This document shows, in pieces, positions 1 through 15,740 of a stretch of DNA of 64,000 nt. Numbering within the stretch: position 1 is the stretch's first letter; each line of letters opens with the position of its first letter. The position numbers were made by a program, and so were the translations under genes. Under the pieces are notes generated by a model. The model was not told where the DNA came from. It made no database searches and saw only the letters and a list, made by a program, of their open reading frames with translations. Origin of the DNA: a virus; IMG/VR virus record IMGVR_UViG_3300042691_025170, positions 1 to 64,000 of that record. One strand, given 5' to 3'.

Positions 1-410
1 GTTCAAGTGGTTCATCTGGCTTAACTGGCTCAAGTGGTACATCGGGTTCAACAGGCTCATCGGGTTCAACGGGCTCAAGTGGAACATCGGGTTCAACAGG
101 CTCATCGGGTTCAACCGGTTCAAGTGGAACGAGTGGTTCAAGTGGAACATCAGGTTCATCTGGTACTAGAGGTTCAAGTGGAACATCGGGTTCAACAGGC
201 TCATCGGGTTCAACAGGCTCAAGTGGTACATCGGGTTCAACAGGCTCATCGGGTTCAACAGGCTCAAGTGGAACGAGTGGTTCAAGTGGAACATCGGGTT
301 CAACGGGCTCAAGTGGAACATCTGGTTCATCGGGTTCAAGTGGTTCAACAGGCTCAAGTGGAACATCGGGTTCAAGTGGTTCCACGGGTTCAAGTGGAAC
401 ATCCGGAACA
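1..410 (+). repeat. Degenerate 9-bp coding tandem repeat (GGT TCA AGT / GGA ACA TCG / GGT TCA ACA) encoding Gly-X-Y triplets
   Basis: Directly visible; about 45 triplets, running off the left edge. Confidence 0.95.
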
Positions 411-1787
411 GGGTTTAATTCTATAATAAATCCATCAGATAATAGAATATTAACGTCTAATGGTACTACAACTTCTGCTATAGCAGAATCAAATTTGACA
501 TTTGATGGGTCTATATTATTGGTAACAGGTTCATTATTCGTATCATCAGCATTATCTACAGGAACAGCATTTACGGCATCATTACAAGAAGGTTATACAT
601 TTGTGGGTGGTGCCGGTAATATATCTCGTCTTGTATCAACTAGTTCATTTGGTGGAGGTGTAGGAGGTGGTCATGTAATACAATCTGAAAGTGTTTCTTT
701 TACACAAAGAGCAAATCTTAATTTCAGAAGAATGATTGTCACGGATGACGCCGGAAACAATGCCACAGTTGTAAAAAGACCTCCGAGTACCACAGTGTCA
801 TCTTTAGCTCCATTAAATCCCGAAGAAGGTGATGAATGGATTAATAGTGATACTTGGAAAAAATATGTTTGGTATTTAAATGCAGGAGGTACAGATTATT
901 GGATAGAAACGGGTACTGTACAAACAAATGGTAGTAGTGGATCATCTGGCTCATCTGGATCTAGTGGTACTTCAGGTTCTTCTGGATCTAGTGGTACTTC
1001 AGGTTCATCGGGCACTTCAGGTTCATCGGGCACTTCAGGTTCATCCGGTACGTCAGGTTCAAGTGGAACACGTGGTTCAAGTGGCACTTCGGGTTCAACA
1101 GGCTCAAGTGGTTCTACGGGTTCAAGTGGAACATCAGGTTCAAGTGGCTCAAGTGGTTCTACGGGTTCAAGTGGTTCAACAGGCTCAAGTGGAACATCGG
1201 GTTCAAGTGGTTCAAGTGGTTCTACGGGTTCAAGTGGTTCTACGGGTTCAAGTGGTTCTACGGGTTCAAGTGGAACATCAGGTTCAAGTGGCTCAAGTGG
1301 TTCTACGGGTTCAAGTGGCTCAAGTGGTTCTACGGGTTCAAGTGGTTCTACGGGTTCAAGTGGAACATCAGGTTCAAGTGGCTCAAGTGGTTCTACGGGT
1401 TCAAGTGGCTCAAGTGGTTCTACAGGTTCAAGTGGATCAAGTGGTCAAGCTGGAAACGCATACTACTCAATGACAATTCAGTATCCAACAGCAACGGAAA
1501 ATATCACATTCTTTTTTAATACGGCATCAGTAACAATATCAGGATTAAATGATGTTGTAAAAGGAACATCACCAAGTGTAACTTATAACATAGATTTTGC
1601 TTCAACTAGAGATTCCGGCACACCTACATCTTTATTCACAGCAGATAGAACTGTAACATCAACAGCCGGTTCGGCAACTGCTGCATTTAATAACGCAACT
1701 ATACCTGCTAATAACTGGGTATGGATAGCCACATCTGCCGCAGCAGCGGGGACAACAGAATTTGCAGTAACATTAAGATTAGCATAA
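3..1787 (+). CDS. Tail/virion fibre protein with two Gly-(Ser/Thr)-(Ser/Thr) repeat blocks; 5' end lies outside the window
   Basis: The frame of the 495..1787 ORF is open back to base 3 (SSGSSGLTGSSGTSG...GTGFNSIINPSDNRILTSNG), so 495 is not the real start. It contains a fibre-type P-x-x-P-x-x-GDEW...W motif and a beta-rich C-terminal domain. Confidence 0.8.
   Translation, partial: SSGSSGLTGSSGTSGSTGSSGSTGSSGTSGSTGSSGSTGSSGTSGSSGTSGSSGTRGSSGTSGSTGSSGSTGSSGTSGSTGSSGSTGSSGTSGSSGTSGSTGSSGTSGSSGSSGSTGSSGTSGSSGSTGSSGTSGTGFNSIINPSDNRILTSNGTTTSAIAESNLTFDGSILLVTGSLFVSSALSTGTAFTASLQEGYTFVGGAGNISRLVSTSSFGGGVGGGHVIQSESVSFTQRANLNFRRMIVTDDAGNNATVVKRPPSTTVSSLAPLNPEEGDEWINSDTWKKYVWYLNAGGTDYWIETGTVQTNGSSGSSGSSGSSGTSGSSGSSGTSGSSGTSGSSGTSGSSGTSGSSGTRGSSGTSGSTGSSGSTGSSGTSGSSGSSGSTGSSGSTGSSGTSGSSGSSGSTGSSGSTGSSGSTGSSGTSGSSGSSGSTGSSGSSGSTGSSGSTGSSGTSGSSGSSGSTGSSGSSGSTGSSGSSGQAGNAYYSMTIQYPTATENITFFFNTASVTISGLNDVVKGTSPSVTYNIDFASTRDSGTPTSLFTADRTVTSTAGSATAAFNNATIPANNWVWIATSAAAAGTTEFAVTLRLA
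930..1460 (+). repeat. Second Gly-Ser/Thr triplet repeat block of the first fibre gene (about 59 triplets)
   Basis: Directly visible GSS/GTS/GST repeats. Confidence 0.95.
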
Positions 1788-1797
1788 TAAATAATTT

Positions 1798-2136
1798 ATG
1801 AGAGAAATAGATACGATAGACCAAAGTATGAAGCAAATCAATCGGGAAGTATTATCTGGTTGGGTTGCTTTCTATTATGAAAACGGACAAGTAGTAAGAT
1901 ATTCATCGGAAACACATGATTGGGCAAGTCTTCCAAATATAGGAGTTATGTATCTTTTTAGAGTATATGAGTCCGGCGCAAAGGAACAAGTTGGTGGTTG
2001 TGATTATTATTGTCCATATCAACTTATGAATGTCGCAGATATAAGACCTTGGATAAAATTTGGTTTATATATAGATGATGGAATATTTAATACAATTGTT
2101 TGGCCAACCGTAGTAAATGACCCAATAAATCATTAA
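1798..2136 (+). CDS. Hypothetical protein (possible fibre accessory/chaperone)
   Basis: 112-aa ORF tightly following the fibre gene; no motif recognised. Confidence 0.6.
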   Translation: MREIDTIDQSMKQINREVLSGWVAFYYENGQVVRYSSETHDWASLPNIGVMYLFRVYESGAKEQVGGCDYYCPYQLMNVADIRPWIKFGLYIDDGIFNTIVWPTVVNDPINH

Positions 2137-2141
2137 TAGTT

Positions 2142-2663
2142 ATGCCCGCATATTTTTTATCAAATACGGCTTCAGATGTTTCTGGTGATAATTTGATGCA
2201 CGCAGGTGTAAACGTAACAACTACACAAGTAGTATCATTAGGTTCGGCTGCTACAGTAACTGTTGACTTTATTACACCCGAATATTATCCTAACAATAAC
2301 GGAGAAACATCAACAAACGGAACGGTACAAATAACACATACCGTAACAAATATGAATATAACTGTCAATGCTCAGAAGCATAGAGTTGATTCAGCAGGTA
2401 CAATATTAGCAAGTGGTACAGCTGGAACTGCAGTAACTACTGCAACTACTAATACTTTTACAAACCTTGATGACCCGACATGGACAACAACAAACTGTAG
2501 TGACCGATTAATGTTAAGGTTAACATATGTAAATGGTGCAATGAGTACACAAAGTGTAACAATAGGAACAGATAGAACTGCAACTTTTTGTCTTTCCAGT
2601 ATAGACCATAACACCGGTTGTTCAGTATTAAGAAAGCCGGCAGTAGTAGTATTTCAAAAATAA
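2142..2663 (+). CDS. Hypothetical Thr-rich beta-strand protein, probably virion-associated
   Basis: 173 aa, T/S/N/G-rich like structural proteins, located between fibre genes. Confidence 0.6.
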   Translation: MPAYFLSNTASDVSGDNLMHAGVNVTTTQVVSLGSAATVTVDFITPEYYPNNNGETSTNGTVQITHTVTNMNITVNAQKHRVDSAGTILASGTAGTAVTTATTNTFTNLDDPTWTTTNCSDRLMLRLTYVNGAMSTQSVTIGTDRTATFCLSSIDHNTGCSVLRKPAVVVFQK

Positions 2664-2704
2664 ATTTTTTATAGTTATTAGTATAGTAAAAATTAACACA
2701 ATAT

Positions 2705-5125
2705 ATGCCAATATCGTTTCCAAATAGTCCGCTAGTTAACGACCAGTATACCGAATCTGGTATAACTTGGATATGGACTGGCACGGTTTGGAATTTAGTA
2801 TCAGGTGCAACAGGAACATCAGGTACAGCAGGTTCATCTGGCTCCACGGGTTCGTCTGGCTCTACTGGTTCAAGTGGAACAAGTGGTTCTACGGGTTCAA
2901 GTGGTTCAACCGGTTCAAGTGGAACAAGTGGGTCAAGTGGTTCAAGTGGGTCAAGTGGGTCAACAGGTTCAAGTGGAACATCTGGTTCATCTGGAACTAG
3001 AGGTTCAAGTGGTTCTTCTGGCTCTACAGGTTCAAGCGGTTCTACGGGTTCAAGTGGAACGAGTGGTTCAAGTGGTTCTTCTGGCTCCACGGGTTCAAGT
3101 GGTTCAACAGGCTCATCTGGCTCATCTGGCTCAACCGGTTCAAGTGGAACAAGTGGAGCTAATGGTTCAAGTGGAACATCCGGACAAAACGGAAGTAGTG
3201 GAACAAGTGGGTCAAGCGGTTCTTCTGGCTCCACGGGTTCAAGTGGTTCAACAGGCTCAAGTGGTTCAACTGGTTCAAGTGGAACAAGTGGAGCTAATGG
3301 TTCAAGTGGAACATCCGGACAAAACGGAAGTAGTGGTTCAAGTGGAACAAGTGGTTCAAGTGGAACATCTGGCTCAAGTGGAACACGTGGTTCAAGTGGA
3401 ACATCTGGCTCAAGTGGAACATCTGGTCAGAATGGTAGTAGTGGCTCAAGTGGAACATCTGGTCAGAATGGTAGTAGTGGTTCAAGCGGTTCAACTGGTT
3501 CATCGGGTTCAACTGGTTCATCGGGTTCAACCGGTTCAAGCGGTAGTAGTGGAACATCTGGCTCAAGTGGAACATCTGGTCAGAATGGTAGTAGTGGAAC
3601 AAGTGGCATTAATGGCTCAAGTGGAACAAGTGGTTCAAGTGGAACATCTGGCTCAAGCGGAACATCCGGCTCAAGTGGAACGAGTGGTTCAAGTGGAACA
3701 TCTGGTCAGAATGGTAGTAGTGGAACAAGCGGCGCTAATGGTTCAAGCGGAACAAGTGGTTCCTCTGGTTCAACAGGCTCAAGTGGTTCAAGTGGAACAA
3801 GTGGTTCAAGTGGTTCCTCTGGTTCAACAGGCTCAAGTGGTTCAAGTGGAACAAGTGGTTCAAGTGGAACATCTGGCTCAAGTGGAACGAGAGGTTCAAG
3901 TGGTTCGTCTGGTTCAACGGGCTCAAGTGGTTCAAGTGGAACATCTGGCTCAAGTGGAACGAGAGGTTCAAGTGGTTCGTCTGGTTCAACAGGCTCAAGT
4001 GGTTCGTCTGGTTCAACAGGCTCAAGTGGTTCAACAGGCTCATCTGGCTCAAGTGGTACGGGATTTACTACACTAACCAATGCAGCAGACAATAGAGTGC
4101 TAACATCGGATGGTGGAGTTAATAGTGCAAATGCGGAAGCAAATCTTACTTTTAATGGTAGTTTATTAACCGTAACCGGTACAACATATATAGAAGGTGG
4201 TTCAGCGGATTGGAATGAAACGACACCGGGTACTTCAAATGGAACAATACATTTAGATCCAGGCTCTGCTACCGATAATTTTGGCAATGCTATAACATTT
4301 GGAGCAAGTGATGCTTCAAGTGGAACAAATGCACAAGCAGGTATATATATTCGTTCTGATGGCACATATGGTACTAAGATGTACATAGCAACTACTGATG
4401 CGTATGTAAGTGGTGCACAAACAAGAATTTATATTGGACACGATGGTAGAGTTGGTATGGGAACTATATCACCTGTTTCTAGATTAGATGTAAACGGAAC
4501 TTTAAGTTTAGCAGGATATAATTTTGGAGTTAATTCTGGAAATTATAATATTCTCTATACACAAGCAGGTACTGCAGGTATATATTTAGGAGGATCAGGT
4601 GATGCAGGAAACTACTATGATAATACAAATCACTATTTTAGAAGTATAAATGGTGGAACTAATTTTGCTTATATAAATTCTACGGGTTTAGGAGTAGGTA
4701 CTACAAGCCCCGGACATAGATTGGTGGTGTCCGGTTCATCTCAAGTAGCTACATCTTTAGCTGTTGGATTGATAACACCAAGCGCTACGGTCGGAAGAAT
4801 TGACGCATCTAATGATATTGTAGCATTTTCAACATCTGACTACAGACTAAAGACAGATGTAACGCAAATACAAAATGCAATAGAAAAAATTAAATCTATA
4901 AATGGAATAAACTTTACTTGGATAGAAAATACAAAAATCCACGGAAATTCCGGTAAAGATGTCGGCGTTATAGCGCAAGAAATTGAAAAAATATTGCCAG
5001 AGGTTGTTACTACTAGGAATAATGGGTATAAAGCTGTTAAATACGAAAAAATAATACCTTTGTTGATAGAAGCAATAAAAGAACAGCAAAGAGAGATAGA
5101 CTCCCTTAAAAAAATATTATTTTGA
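2705..5125 (+). CDS. Tail fibre with about 140 Gly-X-Y (Ser/Thr) triplets and a C-terminal peptidase S74 intramolecular chaperone
   Basis: N-terminal FPNSP...WIWTGTVW anchor, GS repeat, GRVGMGTISP and GLGVGTTSP fibre repeats, then SDYRLKTD...GVIAQEIEKILPEVV...YEKIIPLLIEAIKEQ (S74 signature, from about 4835). Confidence 0.9.
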   Translation: MPISFPNSPLVNDQYTESGITWIWTGTVWNLVSGATGTSGTAGSSGSTGSSGSTGSSGTSGSTGSSGSTGSSGTSGSSGSSGSSGSTGSSGTSGSSGTRGSSGSSGSTGSSGSTGSSGTSGSSGSSGSTGSSGSTGSSGSSGSTGSSGTSGANGSSGTSGQNGSSGTSGSSGSSGSTGSSGSTGSSGSTGSSGTSGANGSSGTSGQNGSSGSSGTSGSSGTSGSSGTRGSSGTSGSSGTSGQNGSSGSSGTSGQNGSSGSSGSTGSSGSTGSSGSTGSSGSSGTSGSSGTSGQNGSSGTSGINGSSGTSGSSGTSGSSGTSGSSGTSGSSGTSGQNGSSGTSGANGSSGTSGSSGSTGSSGSSGTSGSSGSSGSTGSSGSSGTSGSSGTSGSSGTRGSSGSSGSTGSSGSSGTSGSSGTRGSSGSSGSTGSSGSSGSTGSSGSTGSSGSSGTGFTTLTNAADNRVLTSDGGVNSANAEANLTFNGSLLTVTGTTYIEGGSADWNETTPGTSNGTIHLDPGSATDNFGNAITFGASDASSGTNAQAGIYIRSDGTYGTKMYIATTDAYVSGAQTRIYIGHDGRVGMGTISPVSRLDVNGTLSLAGYNFGVNSGNYNILYTQAGTAGIYLGGSGDAGNYYDNTNHYFRSINGGTNFAYINSTGLGVGTTSPGHRLVVSGSSQVATSLAVGLITPSATVGRIDASNDIVAFSTSDYRLKTDVTQIQNAIEKIKSINGINFTWIENTKIHGNSGKDVGVIAQEIEKILPEVVTTRNNGYKAVKYEKIIPLLIEAIKEQQREIDSLKKILF
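2804..4063 (+). repeat. Gly-Ser/Thr triplet coding repeat (about 1.26 kb) with interspersed GQN/GAN/GTR triplets
   Basis: Directly visible. Confidence 0.95.
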
Positions 5126-5142
5126 TAATAAGTTAACCTCAT

Positions 5143-5173
5143 TTTGTAAATAGAAATATTTATACTATATTAG
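5143..5173 (+). promoter_or_regulatory. Overlapping putative promoters: Bacteroidota-like TTTG-N19-TATATTAG and the phage TATTTAT motif (5157-5163)
   Basis: Both motifs recur upstream of several other genes in the window. Confidence 0.45.
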
Positions 5174-5189
5174 GTTCCAAATAAGTTAT

Positions 5190-7784
5190 ATGAAACGCAA
5201 AATACTTTATATTGCTCCACATCTTTCTACGGGTGGAATGCCACAGTATCTCTATAAACAAATGGAGTTATTGAAAGATGAATTTGAGATTTATTGCGTT
5301 GAGTGGGGTGATGTGACTGGCGGAGTCTTAGTTGTACAAAGGAATAAAATAAAAACACTATTAGGTAATAGACTTATAACACTAGGAGAAAAAAAAGAAG
5401 AATTATTTGAAGTAATAAAACGTATTAATCCTGAAGTAGTTCATTTACAAGAGATACCTGAATTATTCATGTCATATGACATTTCAGAAAAACTTTACTC
5501 AAAAGAAAGAAACTACTCTATAATAGAAACCTCTCACGACTCTAGTCAAAGTTCAAAAAGCAAAAGATTTTTTCCAGACAAATTTTTATTTGTAAGTCAG
5601 TATCAAGTAGGTCTGTATAAAGAATTAGGAATACCATCCGATGTTGTAGAGTATCCAATTGAATATTTTCAAAGAACAAAAACAAAAGAACAAGCTCAAA
5701 AAGAATTAGGAATGAATCCTAATCTAAAACACATTATTAATGTTGGACTATTTACACCGAGAAAAAATCAAGCAGAAATAATTGAATATGCAAAAGCATT
5801 AAAAGACTATCCGATTCAATTTCATTTCATAGGAAATCAGGCTGATAATTTTAAGTATTATTGGGAACCGTTGATGAAAGATTTTCCATCTAATTGTAAG
5901 TGGTGGAACGAAAGAACTGATGTAGAAAACTTTTATCAAGCAGCAGATTTATTTCTGTTCACATCTCGTGGTTCTGAACATGATAAGGAAACTATGCCTT
6001 TGGTAATCAGAGAAGCAATTAGTTGGAAAGTACCATCGTTGATATACAACTTATCTGTTTATGAAAATTATTTTGATAAATTTGATAATATTGAATATCT
6101 TGATTATACAAGTCTTACAAAGAATCAACAACTCATAGTAGAAAATTTGAAGTTCAAAAAAATGGAAAACAAACTAGATACATTTTCAATGAATATTAGA
6201 TGGGATGAAGATGAGCAAAAATTATACTACTCATCTAATAGTAGAATAGATTTTCCATTTATTATATCCATAAAACATTATCAATCAGACACAGTAATAT
6301 GGTCTACTAAACACGATATGTTGCCTGAAAATATAGAATATTGGATGATTCCTGTTTCAAAAGACTATATGCGTTTAAAAGATAACGATTATTTTACAGG
6401 CGTTAAGGTATGTGTTTACAAATGTGACACCGATGAATTACTATATGAAGTGCCATACTTTTATAGATTTGTAGATATTCCAAAAGTAAAACTTACAAAT
6501 TCTATACCCAACCATATGAACTATGTTGAGTTTTTTATTGAAAAAAAATATTCAAAATGGTTAGATAGACAATACAAAAATGTAGTGGATGCCGGTGCAA
6601 ATGTGGGAATTTTTACAGAGTATATGCTACAAAATAAATTTGCTGAAAAAATATACTCAATAGAGTGTGATACCCTTGCATTAAAAGACCTCAAAAATAA
6701 CTTTTCAAAAGTAAATAGTGTAGAAATAATTGACAAAGCATTATCAGTATCTAATGAAAAAATAAAATTCTATCAGTCAAAAGAAAATCCAGTTATAAGT
6801 AGCACACTATCACCTGATACATTGCAAAATCATATGGCAGGTGTAAAGGGTGATAATATCTATGAAGTTGATACAATTACAATAAAAGATTTACTACATA
6901 AGGTGGAAACTATAGACCTACTAAAAATGGATATAGAGGGTGGAGAATATGCAATCTTAGAAAAATTAGATGACAAATTATTTGATAATATCAATAACTT
7001 ATTTATTGAATGTCACTTTTTTGAAAAGGATTACATAGAAAAATATAACGCTCTAAAGAATAAATTGATACGCAATAATTACAATATAGAGGAACTAATA
7101 GATAATTCAAATATGCAAAAATATGCTGCGACTAGTGAATGTATTTTTGCAACTAAAAAACACAATATGAATATAGAAAATCACTTAATAAAAAATCCAT
7201 GTGGAAATAAAAGGGACTTAGCTTCATTGGTAAATAATTTATTTCCAAATGGCAAGGGTGTTGAAATAGGAGTTCTCAAAGGGGATTACTCTAAAATAAT
7301 ATTAGAGAGATGGCACAAAGGAACACTATTTTTAGTGGACACTTGGAGACACATAGATAGTTACATAGACATGAATGGTCAAGATGATAAATACCATTAT
7401 GATTGTTTGATAAAAACTTGCGAAAATATAAAGCCTTGGCAAGATAGAGCTCATGTGATTAGAATGGATAGTGTATCAGCCGCTAATATGTTTCCGGATG
7501 AATATTTTGACTTTATATACATTGATGCTGACCACTCATATGAAGCTGTTGTAAGAGATTTGAAAGCTTGGTGGCCAAAGATAAAAAAAGGTGGATTGTT
7601 CTGCGGTGACGATTATATACCGGATGATGGTGATATTTGGCTTACTGTAGGAAATGAAAGTACTTATGCTGGAAAATTCGGAGTAAGAAGAGCAGTAAAT
7701 GAGTTTGTAAAAGAGAACAATTTACATATATTTGAAACATTGGAAGAACCTTATTGGAAACAATGGTATACCTTTAAAAAATAA
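5190..7784 (+). CDS. Three-domain fusion: GT4-like glycosyltransferase + FkbM-family methyltransferase + class I (Methyltransf_24-like) methyltransferase
   Basis: GT-B motifs HLSTGGMPQY, NVGLFTPRKNQ and ETMPLVIREA; FkbM motifs VVDAGANVG and LLKMDIEGGE; third-domain motifs VEIGVLKG, FIYIDADHSYE and GDDY. Confidence 0.85.
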   Translation: MKRKILYIAPHLSTGGMPQYLYKQMELLKDEFEIYCVEWGDVTGGVLVVQRNKIKTLLGNRLITLGEKKEELFEVIKRINPEVVHLQEIPELFMSYDISEKLYSKERNYSIIETSHDSSQSSKSKRFFPDKFLFVSQYQVGLYKELGIPSDVVEYPIEYFQRTKTKEQAQKELGMNPNLKHIINVGLFTPRKNQAEIIEYAKALKDYPIQFHFIGNQADNFKYYWEPLMKDFPSNCKWWNERTDVENFYQAADLFLFTSRGSEHDKETMPLVIREAISWKVPSLIYNLSVYENYFDKFDNIEYLDYTSLTKNQQLIVENLKFKKMENKLDTFSMNIRWDEDEQKLYYSSNSRIDFPFIISIKHYQSDTVIWSTKHDMLPENIEYWMIPVSKDYMRLKDNDYFTGVKVCVYKCDTDELLYEVPYFYRFVDIPKVKLTNSIPNHMNYVEFFIEKKYSKWLDRQYKNVVDAGANVGIFTEYMLQNKFAEKIYSIECDTLALKDLKNNFSKVNSVEIIDKALSVSNEKIKFYQSKENPVISSTLSPDTLQNHMAGVKGDNIYEVDTITIKDLLHKVETIDLLKMDIEGGEYAILEKLDDKLFDNINNLFIECHFFEKDYIEKYNALKNKLIRNNYNIEELIDNSNMQKYAATSECIFATKKHNMNIENHLIKNPCGNKRDLASLVNNLFPNGKGVEIGVLKGDYSKIILERWHKGTLFLVDTWRHIDSYIDMNGQDDKYHYDCLIKTCENIKPWQDRAHVIRMDSVSAANMFPDEYFDFIYIDADHSYEAVVRDLKAWWPKIKKGGLFCGDDYIPDDGDIWLTVGNESTYAGKFGVRRAVNEFVKENNLHIFETLEEPYWKQWYTFKK

Positions 7785-7788
7785 TAAT

Positions 7789-8607
7789 ATGGTCTTATTC
7801 TTATACAGTGATAAAAATTGCGAACATCAGGCTATTGGATGTATTAAATCGCTTGGTAAAAAAGTTGAAGATGATGTTAAGATTGTCTATTACACGATAG
7901 GGTTTGATAGTGAATTTGAATTTACTAATTTACATAAGATTAGAATACCTTATAAACCGGAATATCCAAGATTTCATTTTTATAAGGCTGATTTGTCTCT
8001 ACTAACAATGAATTTATTTCCCGGAGAATATTATGCATTTACAGATACGGATGTTTTATTTTCCAAAAGGTTTTCATTTGATAGAATAAAACATAACAAC
8101 CCATATCCATTAGCAAGTTATGGCCCGCATGAATACCCTTATATTTGGGAAATAGTGGATGGTAATTACAAGATATATAATGAAACTAAAATGATGAATT
8201 ACTTTAATGTAAGTCAGAGGTCTCAAAGATATGTCTGGTCTTGCTTTTATTCTTTTAATTCATATTGTACTGATTTTTTTGAAGAATACATATCAATGTG
8301 TAAAAATCAATATTTACAAAAATATCCTAAAGAATATTTTCCATACGCAGACGAAACACCCTTTAACATATGCCTATGGAAAAGAGGTGTTATAAATAAC
8401 TTAGGATTTTCATTTGTAAATACAAATAATCCAGAAGTTGTTCGTAAAGTGGAAAGCTTAAAAATAAACAATAGTCATGTTGGTGAAAATATAGATTCAC
8501 ATGGAGCAGATTGGGAGTATATACATAACTCAGATGATGTATTACTTTACCATGGATTTAAAAATCAAGTTGATATAGATGCAGCATTATCGTTTATAGA
8601 AAATTGA
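7789..8607 (+). CDS. Putative GT-A fold glycosyltransferase
   Basis: DxD motif (FTDTDVLF), DETPFN..LW segment and late YHG; sits in a GT cluster. Start moved to the ATG at 7789. Confidence 0.55.
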   Translation: MVLFLYSDKNCEHQAIGCIKSLGKKVEDDVKIVYYTIGFDSEFEFTNLHKIRIPYKPEYPRFHFYKADLSLLTMNLFPGEYYAFTDTDVLFSKRFSFDRIKHNNPYPLASYGPHEYPYIWEIVDGNYKIYNETKMMNYFNVSQRSQRYVWSCFYSFNSYCTDFFEEYISMCKNQYLQKYPKEYFPYADETPFNICLWKRGVINNLGFSFVNTNNPEVVRKVESLKINNSHVGENIDSHGADWEYIHNSDDVLLYHGFKNQVDIDAALSFIEN

Positions 8608-8613
8608 GAATTA

Positions 8614-9714
8614 ATGAATAATTATTTAGTTGTACTAGCATCTTATATAAATACTGATACTAAAAGGGATATCGTAGTTGATACATTAAAGCATTTAAAA
8701 GAGCAAAACATAGATGTATGCATGGTAATGCATTCAAATCAATATTTAAACGATGTAGTCAAATATGTTAAATATCTTTATTATGACTACGACAATGAAT
8801 ATGTGGATATACAAGACTTTTATACAAATACAGAGTTATTAAATGACAAAAATTGTTCAATAGGATTTAGCAATGTATGGTTAGCAGGAAATGATTGGAA
8901 TACTCGGATTCACATTAAACCTGAATATTCAAGATGTGCATTATCTCTTTTGAGAAACGGATCTATAATATCACATATTAACAACTATGATTGGGTTGTT
9001 TATTTGGAATATGATATACCAGTTCCTTCGGCTGGTTATAAAAAATTAATAGAAGACAAAATTAATATACTGAATCGTGATAATAAAAATTGTTTCTTTT
9101 TTAAAGAATTAACTATGGACTTGCCTGTGTGGCCAGCGATTATGATTTTTAATTCTAACAAATTATATAACAGTTACATAGTTAAAGATAATTGGTATTC
9201 ATCAAAAATAAATTGGATTAATTTTTGGGGGAACACAGGATTTGAATTTTGTATAGAACATATTATAAATAATGTATATCCAAATGATAGTATATTTGAA
9301 ATAATTACTGAAAAAGAATCAAGTGAATTATGGAATACTACTGACCATATAAATTTGTCAAGGTCTTATCAAAGTAGTATAAGTTTATCAAATTTTATAG
9401 TTCACATATATCCTCAAAAAAATGAAAACAAATATGATTTGCAGCTTGTAATATTTAACACACAAATGAGTGCTTACAATACAATATACGATGTATTAGT
9501 TGAATACGATGATAATGTTGTATTTAGTATTGACAAAATGCAAATGGGTAATAATTGTTACAGAATATACTCACTACCTGATATCAACTTAGTAAAAAAG
9601 GTTAGGTTATCTTACCAATTGATTGGTAAACATAACAAAACTGAAGAATTTTTCTATGTAAAAGATTTGGAAAAAATACATAAATACGTTCTTAACTTTA
9701 ATTCTATAAAATGA
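8614..9714 (+). CDS. Hypothetical protein, possibly glycosyltransferase-like
   Basis: 366 aa with a YDWVVYLEYD acidic motif; located in the GT cluster. Confidence 0.45.
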   Translation: MNNYLVVLASYINTDTKRDIVVDTLKHLKEQNIDVCMVMHSNQYLNDVVKYVKYLYYDYDNEYVDIQDFYTNTELLNDKNCSIGFSNVWLAGNDWNTRIHIKPEYSRCALSLLRNGSIISHINNYDWVVYLEYDIPVPSAGYKKLIEDKINILNRDNKNCFFFKELTMDLPVWPAIMIFNSNKLYNSYIVKDNWYSSKINWINFWGNTGFEFCIEHIINNVYPNDSIFEIITEKESSELWNTTDHINLSRSYQSSISLSNFIVHIYPQKNENKYDLQLVIFNTQMSAYNTIYDVLVEYDDNVVFSIDKMQMGNNCYRIYSLPDINLVKKVRLSYQLIGKHNKTEEFFYVKDLEKIHKYVLNFNSIK

Positions 9715-10640
9715 AAATATATAATTTTTACATAGATAAAAATACTTGTATAATCAACTATGAATCTATAGTAAGTGAACAATTAAAAGTGAAGATAGTT
9801 GTGTCTGATTTGTCAATAGATTGTCCATTATATGTTTTTGATAATGTAACGGGTCACGATGGTTGGATATCACCGGTTAGTGAAAAGTTGAAGAATATCA
9901 TATTGAATAATTCCGACTATTCTGGTTTTTTAATAAAAGTGTATGACGAAAATTTAAGACTAATTCAAACAGAATCCTTATCACTTAATAAACAAAACAA
10001 TAAGCAATATAAACATTACTATACAGATTCATTGGATGCAACTGGCCCTTCCTATATAGACTTTTTTTATGGAGATTTATGCGAAAACATGGATGTGTCC
10101 GATGTTGTTGTAGATGCTGGTGCTAATGTAGGATTTTTTACATTATATGCAAAAGAAAATGGAGCCAAAAGAATCTATAGTATAGAACCAGATCCATCAC
10201 CATATTTTTATTTGCACAAAAATTTTAAGAACGATGAAAATGTTTTGTTAGTAAACAAAGCATTGAGCGATACAACTAATGATATTAGTTTTGATATAGC
10301 AATAGGAACATCTGTTGCCAGTAGTGAGTATCTGAAAAATAATTTTCCAGAAGCACAGGTTTACAAAACAATTGTTAAATGTATTGATGTTAATACCATT
10401 CTGAATATAGAAGATAGTATAAATCTTTTAAAATTGGACATAGAGGGTACTGAATTTAGAGTCATAGATAAGTTAAACGAAAAGGACTTTAGTAGAATAA
10501 ATCAATTTTTTATAGAATTTCATAATAATCCCAAACCGATAGAAGATAAATTATCAAAGAATGGTTATGTAGTTGAGTACAGACATTGTAATCAAAATGA
10601 TTTAGTTGGTTTCATATATGCTTATAAACCTAAAAAATAA
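9711..10640 (+). CDS. FkbM-family methyltransferase
   Basis: VVDAGANVGFF, YSIEPD, LLKLDIEGTE, FIEFH. Confidence 0.9.
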   Translation: MKIYNFYIDKNTCIINYESIVSEQLKVKIVVSDLSIDCPLYVFDNVTGHDGWISPVSEKLKNIILNNSDYSGFLIKVYDENLRLIQTESLSLNKQNNKQYKHYYTDSLDATGPSYIDFFYGDLCENMDVSDVVVDAGANVGFFTLYAKENGAKRIYSIEPDPSPYFYLHKNFKNDENVLLVNKALSDTTNDISFDIAIGTSVASSEYLKNNFPEAQVYKTIVKCIDVNTILNIEDSINLLKLDIEGTEFRVIDKLNEKDFSRINQFFIEFHNNPKPIEDKLSKNGYVVEYRHCNQNDLVGFIYAYKPKK

Positions 10641-10641
10641 A

Positions 10642-12747
10642 ATGAATATAGTAAATGTTACACCCGGTTTAATTCCCATACCTCCTAATGGATGGGGTGC
10701 AGTTGAAAAAATAATTTGGGAAACGCATCTATGCTTATTGGACTATGGTCACAATTCTAAAATTGTTTATCTTGATGATATTCCAAAAGATACCGATGTA
10801 GTCCACATTCATGTAGCCAACTTAGCGAATGAAGCACATCGTAGAGGTATACCATATTACTTTACAATGCATGACCATCATGCATATTTGTATGGAAAAG
10901 ATTCCAATGTTTACCGAGAGAATTTAGAAGCAATAAAAAATGCAAAACGAGCATTTGTTCCTGCAAAATATTTAGTTGATTGGTTTGAAGGAATACCTGA
11001 ATACTTTTCACATGGTGTAAACACGGATTATTTTACAAATGATAAAACGACCACTATTCACAAACTATTATGCGTAGCTAATAACGGATTCATTCATGAC
11101 CAAGCAGAAGATAGAAAAGGATTCGGTTTTGCAATTGAGGCAGCAAAAAAATTGGGTATGGAAATTACAATTGTTGGACCTGATAACAACAAAAAATATT
11201 TTGAAAGATTCCCACCAAACTACTCAGGGTTAAAGATAATTTATAATGCATCGGAAAATGAATTGAAAAAAATATATAGTGAACATTCTGTGTTTATACA
11301 CGCGTCAGTATTAGAAGCAGGTCATCCCAATCTAACATTATTAGAAGCCATGTCTAGCGGATTGCCAGTATTAGCTACATTCGAAGAAAACAATTACTTG
11401 GATGGATTGATACAAATAGATAGGTCATCGGATAGTATTATTAGAGGACTAATGAAAGTGTTTTCAAGTTATCAAAAGTATTCAAAATTAGCTAGACATC
11501 AGGCTGAAAAAATGTCTTGGAAAAATAGAACTAAGGAATTATTGAAAATATATGGATTTGAACCAATTATAAAAACAATGGGTATGAAAGAACAATTGAT
11601 TAGACATTACAATAATACTAATGTAAATTACATACCTCCTAAAAAATATGTACCAAATATAAATATTAATAACATAGATGGTGCTTTTGTAGAAATATTA
11701 GGAGAAGGTGTGAAGGAATATGAGGTATTGTTTACAAATAACAAAACCGGTGAAATAGTTTTTTCAAATAGAATGAAACCAAATCATTGGTCACGGACTA
11801 ACATAAAATATTATGTAGATTGGAACATTAAAATTTATGATAATCAAGAACTGATATATGAGTACAATACTAACTACAAGGGTAAGACAGTTTATATAGC
11901 ATTAGATTCTAAATCTTTAGGAGATACAATAGCTTGGTTTCCGTATGTTGAAGAATTTGGTAAAAAGCATGAATGTAATATTATATGTTCAACATTTTGG
12001 AATGATTTTTTTGAAAAAGAATACCCACATATAAAATTTATAAAGCCGGGAGAAGTTGCCAATAATATAACAGCTATGTACACCATAGGTTTGTTCTACC
12101 ACTCAAATGGTGTAATAGACTCTGCTAAACATCCAAATAATCCTATAATTGGCCCTCTTCAAAAAGTGTCAAGTGATATATTGGGATTGGACTACAAAGA
12201 GATAAGACCTAATATAAAAACAGTTCGGAAAAACAATAAGTACTCTAAATATGTTTCAATAGGATTTCATAGCACTTGTCAAACAAAATATTGGAACAAT
12301 CCTACAGGTTGGAAAGATGTGTCAGAGTATTTAAAATCAAAAGGATTACAACCAGTTTATATATCAAAAGAAGGAATTGACTATATGGGTAACAAATATC
12401 CTGATGGAGTGACATCGATTATTCCAGAAGATATTAATGAAGCAATGTCCCTAATAGCTGGATCTGAATTTTTTATAGGAATATCCAGCGGACTTAGTTG
12501 GTTGGCATGGGCTATGGGTAAGAAAGTAGTTCTAATATCTGGATTTACTCAAGAAAACTTAGAATTTACAGATTGTATTAGAATAATAAACAAAAATGTT
12601 TGTACAGGCTGTTGGCACAAACACAAATTTGATCCAGGTGATTGGAATTGGTGCCCGGAACACAAAGGTACACCGAGGCAATTTGAATGCACAAAAACTA
12701 TAACTTCAAAAGATGTTATAGAAAAATTGGAAAAACTTATTGTCTAA
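10642..12747 (+). CDS. GT4 glycosyltransferase fused to an Aah/TibC-like autotransporter O-heptosyltransferase (BAHT) domain
   Basis: N-terminal GT4 motifs IPPNGWGAVEKII and EAGHPNLTLLEAMSSGLPV. C-terminal half has KYYVDW, SLGDTIAWFPYVEEF..KH.C, FIGISSGLSWLAWA, VVLISGFT and the iron-finger CTGCW...WCPEHKGTPRQFECTKTIT. Confidence 0.85.
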   Translation: MNIVNVTPGLIPIPPNGWGAVEKIIWETHLCLLDYGHNSKIVYLDDIPKDTDVVHIHVANLANEAHRRGIPYYFTMHDHHAYLYGKDSNVYRENLEAIKNAKRAFVPAKYLVDWFEGIPEYFSHGVNTDYFTNDKTTTIHKLLCVANNGFIHDQAEDRKGFGFAIEAAKKLGMEITIVGPDNNKKYFERFPPNYSGLKIIYNASENELKKIYSEHSVFIHASVLEAGHPNLTLLEAMSSGLPVLATFEENNYLDGLIQIDRSSDSIIRGLMKVFSSYQKYSKLARHQAEKMSWKNRTKELLKIYGFEPIIKTMGMKEQLIRHYNNTNVNYIPPKKYVPNININNIDGAFVEILGEGVKEYEVLFTNNKTGEIVFSNRMKPNHWSRTNIKYYVDWNIKIYDNQELIYEYNTNYKGKTVYIALDSKSLGDTIAWFPYVEEFGKKHECNIICSTFWNDFFEKEYPHIKFIKPGEVANNITAMYTIGLFYHSNGVIDSAKHPNNPIIGPLQKVSSDILGLDYKEIRPNIKTVRKNNKYSKYVSIGFHSTCQTKYWNNPTGWKDVSEYLKSKGLQPVYISKEGIDYMGNKYPDGVTSIIPEDINEAMSLIAGSEFFIGISSGLSWLAWAMGKKVVLISGFTQENLEFTDCIRIINKNVCTGCWHKHKFDPGDWNWCPEHKGTPRQFECTKTITSKDVIEKLEKLIV

Positions 12748-12811
12748 GAAACAAATCTATATTTATTGACAAACATATCCGCAACGAATATCGTTTTGGA
12801 AATAAAATTAA

Positions 12812-12818
12812 TATTTAT
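12812..12818 (+). promoter_or_regulatory. Putative phage late promoter core TATTTAT (a second copy lies at 12760-12766)
   Basis: The motif recurs upstream of structural genes. Confidence 0.5.
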
Positions 12819-12855
12819 TAGGAGAATTTAACAAAAATTTTAAAAATAAAAACAA

Positions 12856-15138
12856 ATGGCAGAAAAAATAGTATCACCCGGAGTTTTCACAAGAGAGAAC
12901 GACCTTTCATTTTTAGCACAAGGAGTAGCAGCAATTGGAGCAGCAGTTATTGGCCCGTTTAATGAAGGCCCTCTAACACCCACAGTTGTAACATCCTTAG
13001 CAGATTTAGAAACATGGTATGGTAAAGTAGATGATACTTACTATACACCTCTTACTGTTCAAAATTATTTGAGAGAAGCAGGAACCGTTACGGTTTGTCG
13101 TGTTTCGGGTGTAGATGGATATACGGAACAGAATCCATTGATGTTAACAGTGTACAGTGGTTCTCAAAGTTCTTCATTGGGTCTATTATTTAATACAGAT
13201 AATGATGGTGTTTCATTTGCAACAGCATTCTCTGCACAAGTAACATCAAGTGCTAATTACGCATTTAATGTACCAAGTGCTAGTGTTGCTAGTGCATCCA
13301 TAAGTGCTTCATTATTCCCCACCGCAGCAAATACAATTGATGCAGTATTCGGTACAAATGCAAAAGGTTCAAAAGAAGCATATTCTTACGCATATTTTTC
13401 ACAAGCATGGACTAACTTAGGTTGGACACCTGCATCAGTATCAGGTTCTGTTTTGGGTGACCAATTATTTAACTATGATGCAGTGGAAGCAAACACTCCT
13501 GTAATCCAATCACAATTGATTTCAGGTCAAAGAACAAATATACTTCAGTTCTTTACATTGGGTGCAGGTGAAGCAACTAACACAAAAGTTAAAGTTCAGA
13601 TTTCGGCAATTAAGCCGGCAGGTATAGTACAAGGTTCTGATTATGGATTATTTACTATAACTGTACGAGCGTTTGATGACCTTAACAAAAGAAAAGTAGC
13701 ATATGAAACTTATTCTGGTGTTACTCTTGACCCGGCGTCTCCTAATTATGTTCTTCGTGTAATTGGTAACCGCTCTAAATCAATTGACACCAATGGTAAA
13801 GTAACTGAGTATGGTGATTTCCCGAATGTGTCAAAATATATTCGTTGTTGGAATGAAAATGATACCGATTGGGTAGCAGCAGAAGAAATACCTGTATCAG
13901 CAGTTCCTTTCGGACACGCTCCTTACAAATTATTCGTATCAGCAAGTGCACTTGACACAAGTATCCCTACCGCAACATTTGTAACAGCAAGTTCTACGGT
14001 AGCAGGTGGTATTGATTTAGACAACAATACTGATAACAAAATTTACATGAAGCCGATTCCTACCGGAGCAACTACTGGTTCTAACGCGGCATTCGGTCTT
14101 GATGCATCAAATGGTGGTAACTTGTCCCTAACAGGTTCTGTTTCTACAGATGTGGCAAAACGTCAGTTCGTAGTAGCATTCCAAGGTGGTTTTAACGGAA
14201 TGAATCCCACCACTACAATAAACAAAGGTACTGACATTACAGCAGCTAACGCACAAGGTTTTGACCTTTCAACAGCTACTTCTTCAGGTACTACTGCTTA
14301 TATGACTCAAATAAACGCATTAGCTAACGCTGATGAATATGATGTTAATCTAATCGTAGCACCGGGTCTTATCCGTTCACTACATTCAACTGTAGTAGAT
14401 GACCTTCTTGAGATGGTGGAAAATCGTGGTGATGCATTCTATATAATGGATGCAACCGAACAAGATGCTGACATATCGGCTGTTACCGCACAAGCACAGG
14501 CAGTTGATAGTAACTACGCAGCAATTTACTATCCTTGGGTTAAGGCAGTTAATACCAACACAAATAAATTAATGGCAGTTCCTCCTTCAGTTCTTCTTCC
14601 CGCAGTATATGCTGCAAATGATAGAATAACTGCAGAATGGTACGCACCAGCAGGTTTGAATCGTGGTGGTTTAGCAGGAGCAGTCTCTGTTCTTAACAAA
14701 CTTACTCAAAACGACCGTGACACTTTATACGAAGCAAAAGTAAACCCTATCGCTCAGTTCCCTGGACAAGGTATAGTAGCATTTGGTCAGAAGACGCTTC
14801 AAGATAAGCAATCAGCACTTGACCGCATCAATGTTCGCAGATTGTTGTTGACGGTTCGTAAGTATATCGCATCAGCATCTCGTTATCTCGTGTTCGAACA
14901 AAACACATCGGAAACCCGTCAGAGATTCCTCAACATTGTTAATCCTTACTTAGAAGGTATCCAACAACGCCAAGGTCTCTACGCATTCCGTGTACAGATG
15001 GATGAAACTTTGAATACACCTGATGTAATTGACAGGAATATTCTTAAAGGTGCAATCTTCTTACAACCTACGAAGACTGCAGAATTTATAGTAATTGACT
15101 TCAATATTCTTCCTACTGGAGCAACTTTTGAAGGGTAA
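12856..15138 (+). CDS. Contractile tail sheath protein (T4 gp18-like)
   Basis: SPGVFTRENDLS N-terminus; WYAPAGLNRG, KVNPI, FGQKTLQ..SALDRINVRRLL and PTKTAEFI C-terminal motifs. Confidence 0.95.
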   Translation: MAEKIVSPGVFTRENDLSFLAQGVAAIGAAVIGPFNEGPLTPTVVTSLADLETWYGKVDDTYYTPLTVQNYLREAGTVTVCRVSGVDGYTEQNPLMLTVYSGSQSSSLGLLFNTDNDGVSFATAFSAQVTSSANYAFNVPSASVASASISASLFPTAANTIDAVFGTNAKGSKEAYSYAYFSQAWTNLGWTPASVSGSVLGDQLFNYDAVEANTPVIQSQLISGQRTNILQFFTLGAGEATNTKVKVQISAIKPAGIVQGSDYGLFTITVRAFDDLNKRKVAYETYSGVTLDPASPNYVLRVIGNRSKSIDTNGKVTEYGDFPNVSKYIRCWNENDTDWVAAEEIPVSAVPFGHAPYKLFVSASALDTSIPTATFVTASSTVAGGIDLDNNTDNKIYMKPIPTGATTGSNAAFGLDASNGGNLSLTGSVSTDVAKRQFVVAFQGGFNGMNPTTTINKGTDITAANAQGFDLSTATSSGTTAYMTQINALANADEYDVNLIVAPGLIRSLHSTVVDDLLEMVENRGDAFYIMDATEQDADISAVTAQAQAVDSNYAAIYYPWVKAVNTNTNKLMAVPPSVLLPAVYAANDRITAEWYAPAGLNRGGLAGAVSVLNKLTQNDRDTLYEAKVNPIAQFPGQGIVAFGQKTLQDKQSALDRINVRRLLLTVRKYIASASRYLVFEQNTSETRQRFLNIVNPYLEGIQQRQGLYAFRVQMDETLNTPDVIDRNILKGAIFLQPTKTAEFIVIDFNILPTGATFEG

Positions 15139-15192: not shown

Positions 15193-15681
15193 ATGGCAGA
15201 AGTATTAGAGTTTGACAAAATATTTTACAAGAATTTTGAACCGAAACTTTCAAACAGATTCATCATGGAAATCAATGGAATTGATTCCTATCTTGTAAAG
15301 ACAGCATCTCGTCCAACTGTGACTAGCGAAGTAGTAGAGCTAGACCACATTAACGTGAAGAGAAAGATTAAGGGTAAGACAAATTGGGACGATATCACAA
15401 TATCTCTCTATGACCCGATTGTTCCTTCTGGTGCACAACAAGTAATGGAGTGGGTTCGTCAGTCTCATGAATCTTTAACAGGTCGTGATGGATACGCAGC
15501 TTTCTATAAGAAAGACATCAACTTTAAAATGTTGGGTCCTGTTGGTGATGTAGTTGAATTGTGGACACTAAAAGGTGCATTCATAACTTCAGCAAATTTT
15601 GGAGATATGGATTGGGCTGGTAACGATGTAATGAGTATTGAAGTTACCTTGTCTTACGACTACGCAATTCTCGAATACTAA
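15193..15681 (+). CDS. Tail tube protein (T4 gp19-like)
   Basis: Follows the sheath; 162 aa with NRFIM, WDDITISLYDP, WTLKGAF and LSYDYA motifs. Confidence 0.92.
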   Translation: MAEVLEFDKIFYKNFEPKLSNRFIMEINGIDSYLVKTASRPTVTSEVVELDHINVKRKIKGKTNWDDITISLYDPIVPSGAQQVMEWVRQSHESLTGRDGYAAFYKKDINFKMLGPVGDVVELWTLKGAFITSANFGDMDWAGNDVMSIEVTLSYDYAILEY

Positions 15682-15702: not shown

Positions 15703-15740
15703 AAAATCTCTCTGCCAGTGGTGGGGAGATTTTTTATTTT
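15703..15740 (+). terminator. Rho-independent terminator after the tube gene
   Basis: AAAATCTCTCTGCC-AGT-GGTGGGGAGATTTT stem (with G-U pairs) followed by a T-run. Confidence 0.8.

Follow-up and report, generated by a model that had tools for sequence, protein, structure and literature searches.

The phage represented by the first 64 kb (hereafter the window) of a 100,578-b IMG/VR virus record, IMGVR_UViG_3300042691_025170, probably O-glycosylates, or more precisely O-heptosylates, its own collagen-like fibres by means of an encoded enzyme system, and then extends and methylates the glycan; we put the probability of this reading at about 65%. It is built on two fibre genes with long tracts of glycine-serine/threonine triplets, and on a block of enzyme genes behind them that ends in a gene for a bacterial autotransporter heptosyltransferase (BAHT). 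Both fibre genes lie on a single contig with the full enzyme block, and so do an operon for heptose-nucleotide synthesis and an extensive sugar island. From these genes we infer the fibres as acceptor, with the collagen tract rather than another virion protein as the target, as well as the identity of the sugar, the order in which priming, extension and methylation follow each other, and the biological role. The window genome is that of a low-G+C, T4-like myovirus with nearly every gene on the + strand, and phage hallmarks found in it include a tail sheath, a gp19-like tube, a T4 baseplate protein, gp32, a RecA/UvsX-like protein and a DnaB-like helicase. The phage is uncultured, and the window sequence is also present in several freshwater and lagoon DNA metagenomes. 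All window genes given below lie on the + strand.

Fibre gene 1 (3..1787), the 5' end of which is cut by the contig end, carries two G-[ST]-[ST] runs at nucleotides (nt) 9-413 and 930-1460, of 45 or 59 triplets each (104 Gly-X-Y in sum, 98 strictly G[ST][ST]), with globular domains between and after them. Fibre gene 2 (2705..5125; 806 amino acids, aa) carries one collagen-like run at nt 2804-4063, with 140 triplets of which 123 are strict, followed by a globular shaft and a C-terminal Peptidase_S74 intramolecular chaperone (aa 711-768, E 6.6e-16), a domain typical of trimeric fibres and spikes; no such chaperone domain was found in fibre 1. Both proteins match Pfam Collagen (PF01391; E 5e-45 for fibre 1 and 3e-59 for fibre 2, with scores of 151.5 and 197 bits, the cut-off being 27.2) with uninterrupted repeats, both are assigned by PHROGs to tail fibre families, and no further Pfam Collagen match was found elsewhere in the 100-kb record. 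An earlier note on this DNA had proposed about 245 Gly-(S/T)-(S/T) triplets, a figure which agrees with the 244 Gly-X-Y triplets counted in the three runs of 45, 59 and 140, and which is too high for the strict form, as only 221 of the 244 are G[ST][ST] (GSS 126, GTS 50, GST 45). The total of 244 is a minimum, since the contig end cuts fibre 1 short. Moreover, the several hundred hydroxyl side chains claimed in the same note were borne out by a count of 453 Ser/Thr residues in the three runs, which also contain 0 Pro, 0 Lys/Asp/Glu and 6 Arg. The known stabilisers of the triple helix, namely Pro/hydroxyproline and Lys-Asp/Glu salt bridges, are therefore both missing from the tracts, and such salt bridges stabilise most viral collagen-like domains.

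The enzyme block consists of five tightly packed or overlapping genes (5190-12747), which begin 65 nt past fibre 2. Its last open reading frame (ORF; 10606..12747, likely start ATG 10642) encodes a fusion of a GT4 domain (about aa 13-330) with a TibC/Aah-type protein O-heptosyltransferase domain (aa 357-710). TibC is the E. coli enzyme that coats adhesins with heptose, and BAHTs of the TibC/Aah type take the heptose from ADP-heptose and form a dodecameric ring. The BAHT domain of the window scores 301.4 bits against TIGR04414 (cut-off 200), with aa 365-710 covering profile positions 24-373 of 374, and reached 303.6 bits in the whole-record profile search; it also matches the TibC structure 4RAP with E 6e-55 in an alignment spanning TibC residues 29-385. 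Residue roles in TibC were described by Yao et al. 2014 (PMC4358343), with Asp-110 as catalytic base, Thr-226, Lys-230 and Trp-305 in phosphate and sugar contacts, a Cys iron finger, and Pro-300 as the determinant of stereoselectivity. Aligned to 4RAP, the window enzyme keeps Asp-110, Thr-226, Lys-230 and Trp-305, together with all four iron-finger cysteines, Cys-339/342/358/370 (CTGCW...WCPEHK...RQFEC), and has Ser at the Pro-300 position, as in Aah. Across 82 family members, Asp-110, Lys-230 and Trp-305 are invariant, and position 226 is Thr or Ser. Judged by its sequence, the window gene product is a true member of the BAHT family with intact catalytic and iron-finger residues.

We then focused on the neighbourhood of BAHT genes in other phages. 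A profile made from eight phage BAHT domains led to at least 576 IMG/VR contigs, of which the best 80 were examined with 10-kb flanks and dereplicated at 80% BAHT identity; the family as a whole spans these IMG/VR contigs, at least 576 in number, together with 4368 clusters of proteins at 90% identity. As a nucleotide query against the phage collection, the enzyme block of the window gave 0 matches. Two phage architectures were recognised, each with 24 clusters. In type B, to which the window belongs, BAHT is mostly fused to GT4 or methyltransferase (MT) domains, and a collagen-like ORF is present in the locus in 20 of the 24 clusters; in 10 of them it comes as the very next gene, on the same strand and at a distance of 30-90 nt downstream; the X and Y positions of these collagen-like ORFs hold a Ser/Thr fraction of 0.6-0.96 and virtually no Pro. 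In type A, a giant Ser/Thr-rich fibre ORF (1,700-2,470 aa) is followed by a GT4-MT protein, a stand-alone BAHT, hldC and hldA, an order kept in about 24 lineages, as in locus L031 with its giant fibre of about 2,300 aa (3-6899, P0005) and a GT4-MT24 protein. The fibres themselves are related across loci. The domain between the collagen runs of fibre 1 has homologues in collagen fibres at nine other BAHT loci, the C-terminal domain of fibre 2 is common to fibres of 12 BAHT loci and to type-A giant fibres, and the giant ORF of locus L027 carries at its end the S74 chaperone also found in fibre 2. In addition, BAHT was found in the fusions GT4-FkbM-BAHT, GT4-BAHT-MT24/TylF, GT4-BAHT-FkbM and MT23-x-BAHT, and its fusion in varied orders to GT4, FkbM, MT24 and MT23 argues that these activities act on one product.

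The earlier note had suggested checking the co-occurrence and adjacency of BAHT with GSS/GTS-repeat genes across phage genomes, and both comparisons were positive. When a BAHT-sized gene was set at random in 18 whole records and its distance to collagen regions compared with the real one, per-record p values ranged from 0.002 to 1.0, and combined by Fisher's method they gave a chi-square of 112.5 with 36 degrees of freedom (p 8e-10), the real BAHT genes being nearer to collagen genes than expected by chance. A reverse control, in which 80 loci were picked by the fibre C-terminal domain and blind to BAHT, placed a BAHT in 4 of the 17 loci with a collagen ORF versus 0 of the 63 without (p 0.0015). 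At the level of whole records, BAHT accompanied Ser/Thr-rich (>=0.6) collagen fibres in 6 of 7 cases, the exception being a 26-kb fragment, as opposed to 1 of 8 records with Ser/Thr-poor collagen fibres and 0 of 8 whose fibre locus lacks a collagen ORF (three of the latter being complete genomes); this contrast across fibre types has p 4.6e-4, or 1.7e-3 once near-duplicates are removed.

A cultured relative with a BAHT exists, namely Microcystis phage Mel-JY01 (L001, PP395634.1). On its + strand, positions 2-3049 form an unannotated, stop-free, collagen-like frame of 1016 aa with 202 Gly-X-Y triplets and Pfam Collagen matches, over which two minus-strand coding sequences labelled "hypothetical protein" (1-651 and 739-2298) have been annotated, probably by mistake. 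The BAHT domain of this phage is the C-terminus of a 1226-aa coding sequence labelled "methyltransferase FkbM".

Bacterial relatives were also investigated, and a scan of one genome per species gave 122 BAHT-encoding stretches. Among the bacterial loci closest to the phage enzymes are genuine chromosomes, belonging to Methylobacter, Methylomicrobium, Methylococcus and other Gammaproteobacteria. In these, a stand-alone BAHT adjoins a small protein that has a signal peptide, a (G-T-S)n tract of 12-39 triplets and a conserved C-terminal domain; by appearance, the tract is a linker behind the signal peptide. BAHT and repeats are paired again in bacterial chromosomes that differ in G+C content. A G[ST][ST] run of at least four triplets occurs in 14 of the 16 bacterial loci of the phage-containing clade versus 0 of 17 in the classical clade, and the Fisher test (p 2e-5) was computed on the 11 of 16 loci flagged at >=10 Gly-X-Y triplets. 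In the classical clade (Burkholderiaceae/Acetobacteraceae) the neighbour is a large AIDA-repeat protein, which in locus L283 also has an autotransporter beta-domain, and AIDA and Autotransporter domains stand beside this bacterial clade only; the phage of the window has no autotransporter, and its neighbouring repeat proteins are Gly-X-Y fibres. As the same pipeline recovers the enzyme-next-to-substrate rule in the classical clade, it provides a positive control, and the assumption that a BAHT gene lies beside the gene of its substrate holds there. A maximum-likelihood tree separates the autotransporter-linked clade from all phage and repeat-linked bacterial enzymes with 100% support in the Shimodaira-Hasegawa-like approximate likelihood ratio test (SH-aLRT). 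Within the phage/repeat clade, the basal branches show repeat linkage, and a nested sub-clade (98%) is made up of the type-A phages.

A few of these bacterial loci deserve mention on their own account. Those with the (G-T-S)n protein, a candidate bacterial glycoprotein family, come from Methylococcales and other Gammaproteobacteria and include L252, L254, L255, L257, L260, L261 and L281. In Acetobacter orleanensis (L320:9091-14229), a classical-clade BAHT stands beside a 1713-aa Ser/Thr-rich protein with a Hint domain and no autotransporter domain, and tandem BAHT genes occur at two Acetobacter loci, L295 and L311.

The four genes that precede the BAHT gene in the block may provide the extension and methylation activities. 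The first (5190..7784) encodes a protein with GT4, FkbM methyltransferase (TIGR01444, fkbM_fam) and Methyltransf_24 domains, the last being of the TylF-like sugar O-methyltransferase class, as assigned with Pfam; a homologue directly upstream of BAHT was found in 71 of 86 loci, in both architecture types, and the one in locus L031 (7740-9920) gives a TylF match. It is overlapped by a candidate GT-A (GT8-like) glycosyltransferase of 291 aa with an uncertain start (7732..8607), for which no Pfam, NCBIfam or PHROG match was found. Its DxD motif is invariant across the homologue alignment (D105 and D107), a weak profile match leads to the GT8 Skp1 galactosyltransferase 6MW5 (E 0.032), the protein-cluster atlas also leads to GT8, and homologues are fused to FkbM-GT4 or BAHT in L023, L078 and L081; its AlphaFold2 (AF2) model, built from four sequences, was too poor for use, with a predicted local distance difference test score (pLDDT) of 43. 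The next protein (8614..9714; 366 aa), without a family match, is predicted by AF2 and Foldseek to join an N-terminal GT-A-like nucleotide-sugar transferase fold to a C-terminal beta-sandwich. The model, from 12 homologues, has a mean pLDDT of 60 and values of 80-92 in the N-terminal core, and its Foldseek matches in the PDB are all of GT-A fold (3CGX as the best with E 4.7e-5, glycogenin, TarP, PBCV-1 A64R and COLGALT1). The atlas clusters of this protein are viral-only and the same fold also occurs inside Aah/TibC fusion proteins; BLASTP found no similarity to the N-terminal half of the BAHT fusion of L032. Finally, 9711..10640 encodes an FkbM-family methyltransferase of 309 aa (Pfam Methyltransf_21 E 6.7e-14; TIGR01444 85 bits against a cut-off of 37.7). 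The block thus holds the three methyltransferase domains that the earlier note had listed on the same strand after the fibres (FkbM, Methyltransf_24 and a second FkbM), and its two GT4 domains, one of them fused to BAHT, likewise agree with that account. The GT-A glycosyltransferases of the note fared unevenly, as the model of 8614-9714 matches GT-A folds only (at pLDDT 60), whereas for 7732-8607 there are just the DxD motif and weak GT8 leads.

The block is set inside the virion module, as had been proposed, since the tail sheath gene (12856..15138; Pfam Phage_sheath_1 and Phage_sheath_1C; PHROG 23, E 6e-68) starts 109 nt past the BAHT gene and is directly followed by the gp19-like tail tube gene (15193..15681). 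The first strong terminator-like hairpin of the region is found at 15703-15733, after the tube gene. Neither the gap from the fibre 2 stop to the enzyme block nor that from BAHT to the sheath gene contains a terminator-like site, according to scans that were otherwise at chance level, and one weak + strand site lies within the BAHT gene (10867-10885). A sigma-70 promoter scan was at chance level only. The T4 late-promoter motif TATAAATA had no + strand match in front of either the fibre genes or the enzyme block, and the motif is therefore uninformative on timing.

With regard to the supply of sugars, the record contains outside the window, at record positions 88531-90863 (L089:4531-6866), four consecutive overlapping genes for a cupin and for HldC-like, HldA-like and HldD-like proteins, the last three of which (an adenylyltransferase, a kinase and an epimerase) each have an ADP-heptose enzyme as best NCBIfam match. 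In about 30 other phage loci, of type A, hldC and hldA stand behind BAHT, separated by gaps of about 9 nt. The proposal that the sugar is a heptose gains support from these HldC/HldA/HldD-like genes and from the BAHT-hldC-hldA order elsewhere, as far as gene content can tell. A second glycan and nucleotide-sugar island of about 20 kb runs from 46865 to the window end (64000) and past it, and could be a source of additional sugars. Among its products are Gmd (405.7 bits), two DegT aminotransferases, a GNAT protein, an HAD-phosphomutase/nucleotidyltransferase fusion, epimerases, methyltransferases, a GT4, several GT2 and a GT11. Weak matches to Pfam PF20706 (GT4 in conflict systems) were seen at window positions 46865-48244 and in the GT4 domains of L065 and L006.

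Several observations weigh against fibre glycosylation or against parts of it. For all the phages treated here, it is a prediction drawn from genes, and no RNA sequencing run is listed as containing window positions 4400-13000. We know of no BAHT substrate with Gly-X-Y tracts, the known ones being beta-helical strand-loop-strand repeats. No collagen gene lies near BAHT in type-A phages, which pair the enzyme with a giant non-collagen fibre, and phage BAHTs are therefore not tied to collagen tracts alone. In the window itself, 5.5 kb separate the BAHT gene from the fibre gene (per-record p 0.059), and the gene closest to BAHT is that of the tail sheath; moreover, the linkage statistics ignore shared ancestry and most records are fragments. 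The heptose genes of the record are 77 kb away from BAHT, and the HldC-, HldA- and HldD-like products (108.5, 118.8 and 174.7 bits, respectively) all score under the equivalog cut-offs. The pathway to ADP-L-glycero-D-manno-heptose was not found complete, as the 100-kb record holds no match to GmhA (TIGR00441), with the cupin in its expected place, and no GmhB could be identified in it. CheckV estimates the record at about 53% completeness, so that the absence of GmhA, as well as that of the Bac_transf and thymidylate synthase families discussed below, is weak evidence. Furthermore, Arg-286 of TibC contacts adenine N1 and its mutation cripples the enzyme (PMC4358343), and the window enzyme has Ala at this position, a departure from what is expected for an ADP-linked donor. 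Arg-286 is kept in 16 of 16 members of the autotransporter clade and is V/I/A/T/L in most of the phage/repeat clade, including phages with heptose-nucleotide genes directly behind BAHT. Its loss is therefore a clade signature and not a defect of the window gene; because the residue is replaced, the donor nucleotide may differ.

If the fibres are indeed glycosylated, their chains would be made late in infection together with the enzyme block, and a shared fibre-enzyme transcription unit is suggested by tight gene packing and by terminator-free gaps on either side of the block. In the cytoplasm of the host, the BAHT domain of the protein encoded at 10642-12747 would transfer heptose to the Ser/Thr hydroxyls of the G-[ST]-[ST] tracts, in the manner of Aah/TibC, with a nucleotide-heptose as putative donor that may come at least partly from the phage HldA/HldC/HldD-like enzymes. 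Further sugars would then be added by the fused GT4, the GT4-FkbM-MT24 protein and the two GT-A-like ORFs, the glycan would be O-methylated by the FkbM and MT24 domains, and the C-terminal chaperone would trimerise the fibre. The predicted product is a collagen-like or mucin-like fibre shaft that is densely glycosylated and free of both proline and charge, and the role of the glycan could be helix stabilisation, protection or adhesion. Ac-(Gly-Pro-Thr)10, which is a synthetic peptide, folds into a triple helix only with galactosylated Thr (PMC11923368). As the tracts lack both Pro and salt bridges, and as this peptide needs glycosylated Thr, glycosylation may be required for folding of the fibres.

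Four other explanations of the block were weighed against fibre glycosylation, and together they carry about one third of the probability. The enzymes might act on another virion protein, such as the sheath, the tube, the capsid or the fibres' globular parts, with the collagen genes as mere neighbours in the module. We regard this as rather unlikely, even though the BAHT gene lies directly upstream of the tail sheath gene in the window, in its closest relatives (L004 and L009) and also in L008, L018, L048 and L052, and even though type-A phages pair BAHT with a giant fibre that is not collagen; glycosylation of mycobacteriophage capsid and tail tube is, moreover, presented as established in the work cited in PMC12619734. 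Sheath linkage is, however, restricted to 11 of the 86 loci, while linkage to a collagen or a giant fibre is near-universal, BAHT tracks Ser/Thr-rich collagen and not fibres generally at the record level, and the bacterial sister enzymes adjoin G-T-S repeat proteins without having any virion. Alternatively, the glycosyl- and methyltransferases could remodel the host surface during infection (lipopolysaccharide, capsule or surface proteins), for instance to block superinfection, which we judge to be improbable to very nearly the same degree, and if anything slightly more so. Cyanophage genes for "cell-wall synthesis and modification" are usually read in this way (PMC12801897), heptose is a sugar of the lipopolysaccharide core, and the second island, about 20 kb long, holds Gmd, DegT, GT2 and GT11, a gene set typical of O-antigen synthesis. 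Nevertheless, every characterised BAHT is a protein O-glycosyltransferase, its linkage to repeat proteins holds in both phages and bacteria, and the block is placed between fibre and sheath genes with no terminator between. In addition, the 100-kb record encodes no flippase, polymerase or ABC exporter-like polytopic protein, as a hydropathy scan revealed no ORF with four or more membrane-spanning segments, and no initiating phosphoglycosyltransferase (Bac_transf, PF02397) was matched in it; in the part of the genome covered, there is therefore no phage-encoded route to an exported lipid-linked glycan.

It is also conceivable, at a low probability, that the linkage is real and the tracts stay unmodified, the enzymes being inactive on them, so that fibres and enzymes would be co-inherited as a mobile fibre cassette and folding would be sugar-free. 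Many loci are related by descent and the statistics carry no phylogenetic correction, and hydration networks alone could stabilise Ser/Thr-rich collagen-like proteins; yet the catalytic and sugar-binding residues, Arg-286 apart, are kept over 82 diverged members, which implies selection for activity, and the pairing outlasts rearrangement, strand changes and domain shuffling, and recurs in bacterial chromosomes of different G+C. Least probable of all, and to our judgement very much so, is that the sugars are placed on phage DNA as hypermodified bases, comparable to the glucosyl-hydroxymethylcytosine of T4. T4-like phages do commonly glycosylate their DNA, and diverse viral glycosyltransferases hypermodify DNA according to Pyle et al. 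2024 as cited in PMC12619734, but the block is in the virion module and not in the nucleotide-metabolism module, BAHT has no known DNA activity, and no gene of the thymidylate-synthase/dCMP-hydroxymethylase family (PF00303) was matched in the 100-kb record.

Compared with known systems, the predicted fibre glycosylation is closest in enzyme type to TibC-TibA and Aah-AIDA-I (TIGR04414; 4RAP, 4RB4), with which it shares a homologous catalytic domain, the key residues, the four-Cys iron finger, a gene position near a highly repetitive Ser/Thr-rich protein, and heptose-nucleotide supply at hand. It differs from them in that the enzyme is phage-encoded, fused to GT4, changed from Arg-286 to Ala and placed in the separate clade described above, that its neighbour is a Gly-X-Y fibre and not a beta-helical autotransporter, and that extra glycosyl- and methyltransferases lie alongside. 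Mycobacteriophage glycosyltransferases reportedly modify the C-termini of the phages' own capsid and tail-tube proteins, as Freeman et al. 2023 (PMC10527164) are cited as having found. That case is alike in that phage-encoded enzymes act on their own structural proteins in the host cytoplasm, and differs in its acceptor sites and enzyme families, a long fibre repeat tract and BAHT priming being predicted here. BclA of the Bacillus anthracis exosporium is likewise a collagen-like Gly-X-Thr surface filament with O-linked, methyl-bearing oligosaccharides; its triplets are proline-rich (GPT), and it is a bacterial spore protein modified by other glycosyltransferases, with no BAHT. As cited in PMC9614988, Daubenspeck et al. 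2004 described O-linked oligosaccharides ending in methylated anthrose on its collagen-like region. Mimivirus also encodes collagen-like proteins, their glycosylating enzyme and its own nucleotide-sugar pathways, with L230 hydroxylating Lys and adding glucose to hydroxylysine (PMC9614988), but it is a virus of eukaryotes and its enzymes are unrelated. In Riftia cuticle collagen and the GPT peptide (PMC11923368), O-glycosylated Thr in Gly-X-Y can replace hydroxyproline as stabiliser, although these are an animal collagen and a synthetic peptide, with galactose instead of heptose and with proline present. Glycosylation of mycobacteriophage capsid and tail tube by other enzymes is thus already known, as are glycosylated collagen-like filaments in the Bacillus exosporium and in giant viruses; our literature search found no paper tying phage heptosyltransferases to collagen-like fibres.

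The BAHTs have been known as a small, virulence-associated group of Proteobacteria, and appear here as an extensive family, viral and environmental for the most part, for which a second class of substrates is predicted. Should the fibres prove to be modified as predicted, dense fibre O-glycosylation would be common in aquatic T4-like phages, with a bearing on how hosts are recognised and how stable the particles are, and on grazing or immune recognition; an explanation would also follow for how collagen-like tracts can work without proline or salt bridges, and some phage "cell-wall modification" genes would have to be reassigned to virion modification. A wider proposal, which we find rather doubtful, is that BAHTs form two substrate classes of which the larger is not autotransporters, and that the phage/bacterial clade reads a G-[ST]-[ST] code, with heptosylation, extension and methylation letting proline-free, charge-free fibres fold and stay stable. 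This would amount to a swap of glycan for hydroxyproline in thousands of aquatic phages.

Two small ORFs lie between the fibre genes, at 1798..2136 (112 aa) and 2142..2663 (173 aa); they gave no Pfam, NCBIfam or PHROGs match and no homologue at other BAHT loci. Outside the window, the same phage record also contains a glutamine-synthetase-like gene at 69734-70852 (L088:5734-6852), with matches to Gln-synt_C (E 5e-15) and Gln-synt_N (E 1.8e-8).

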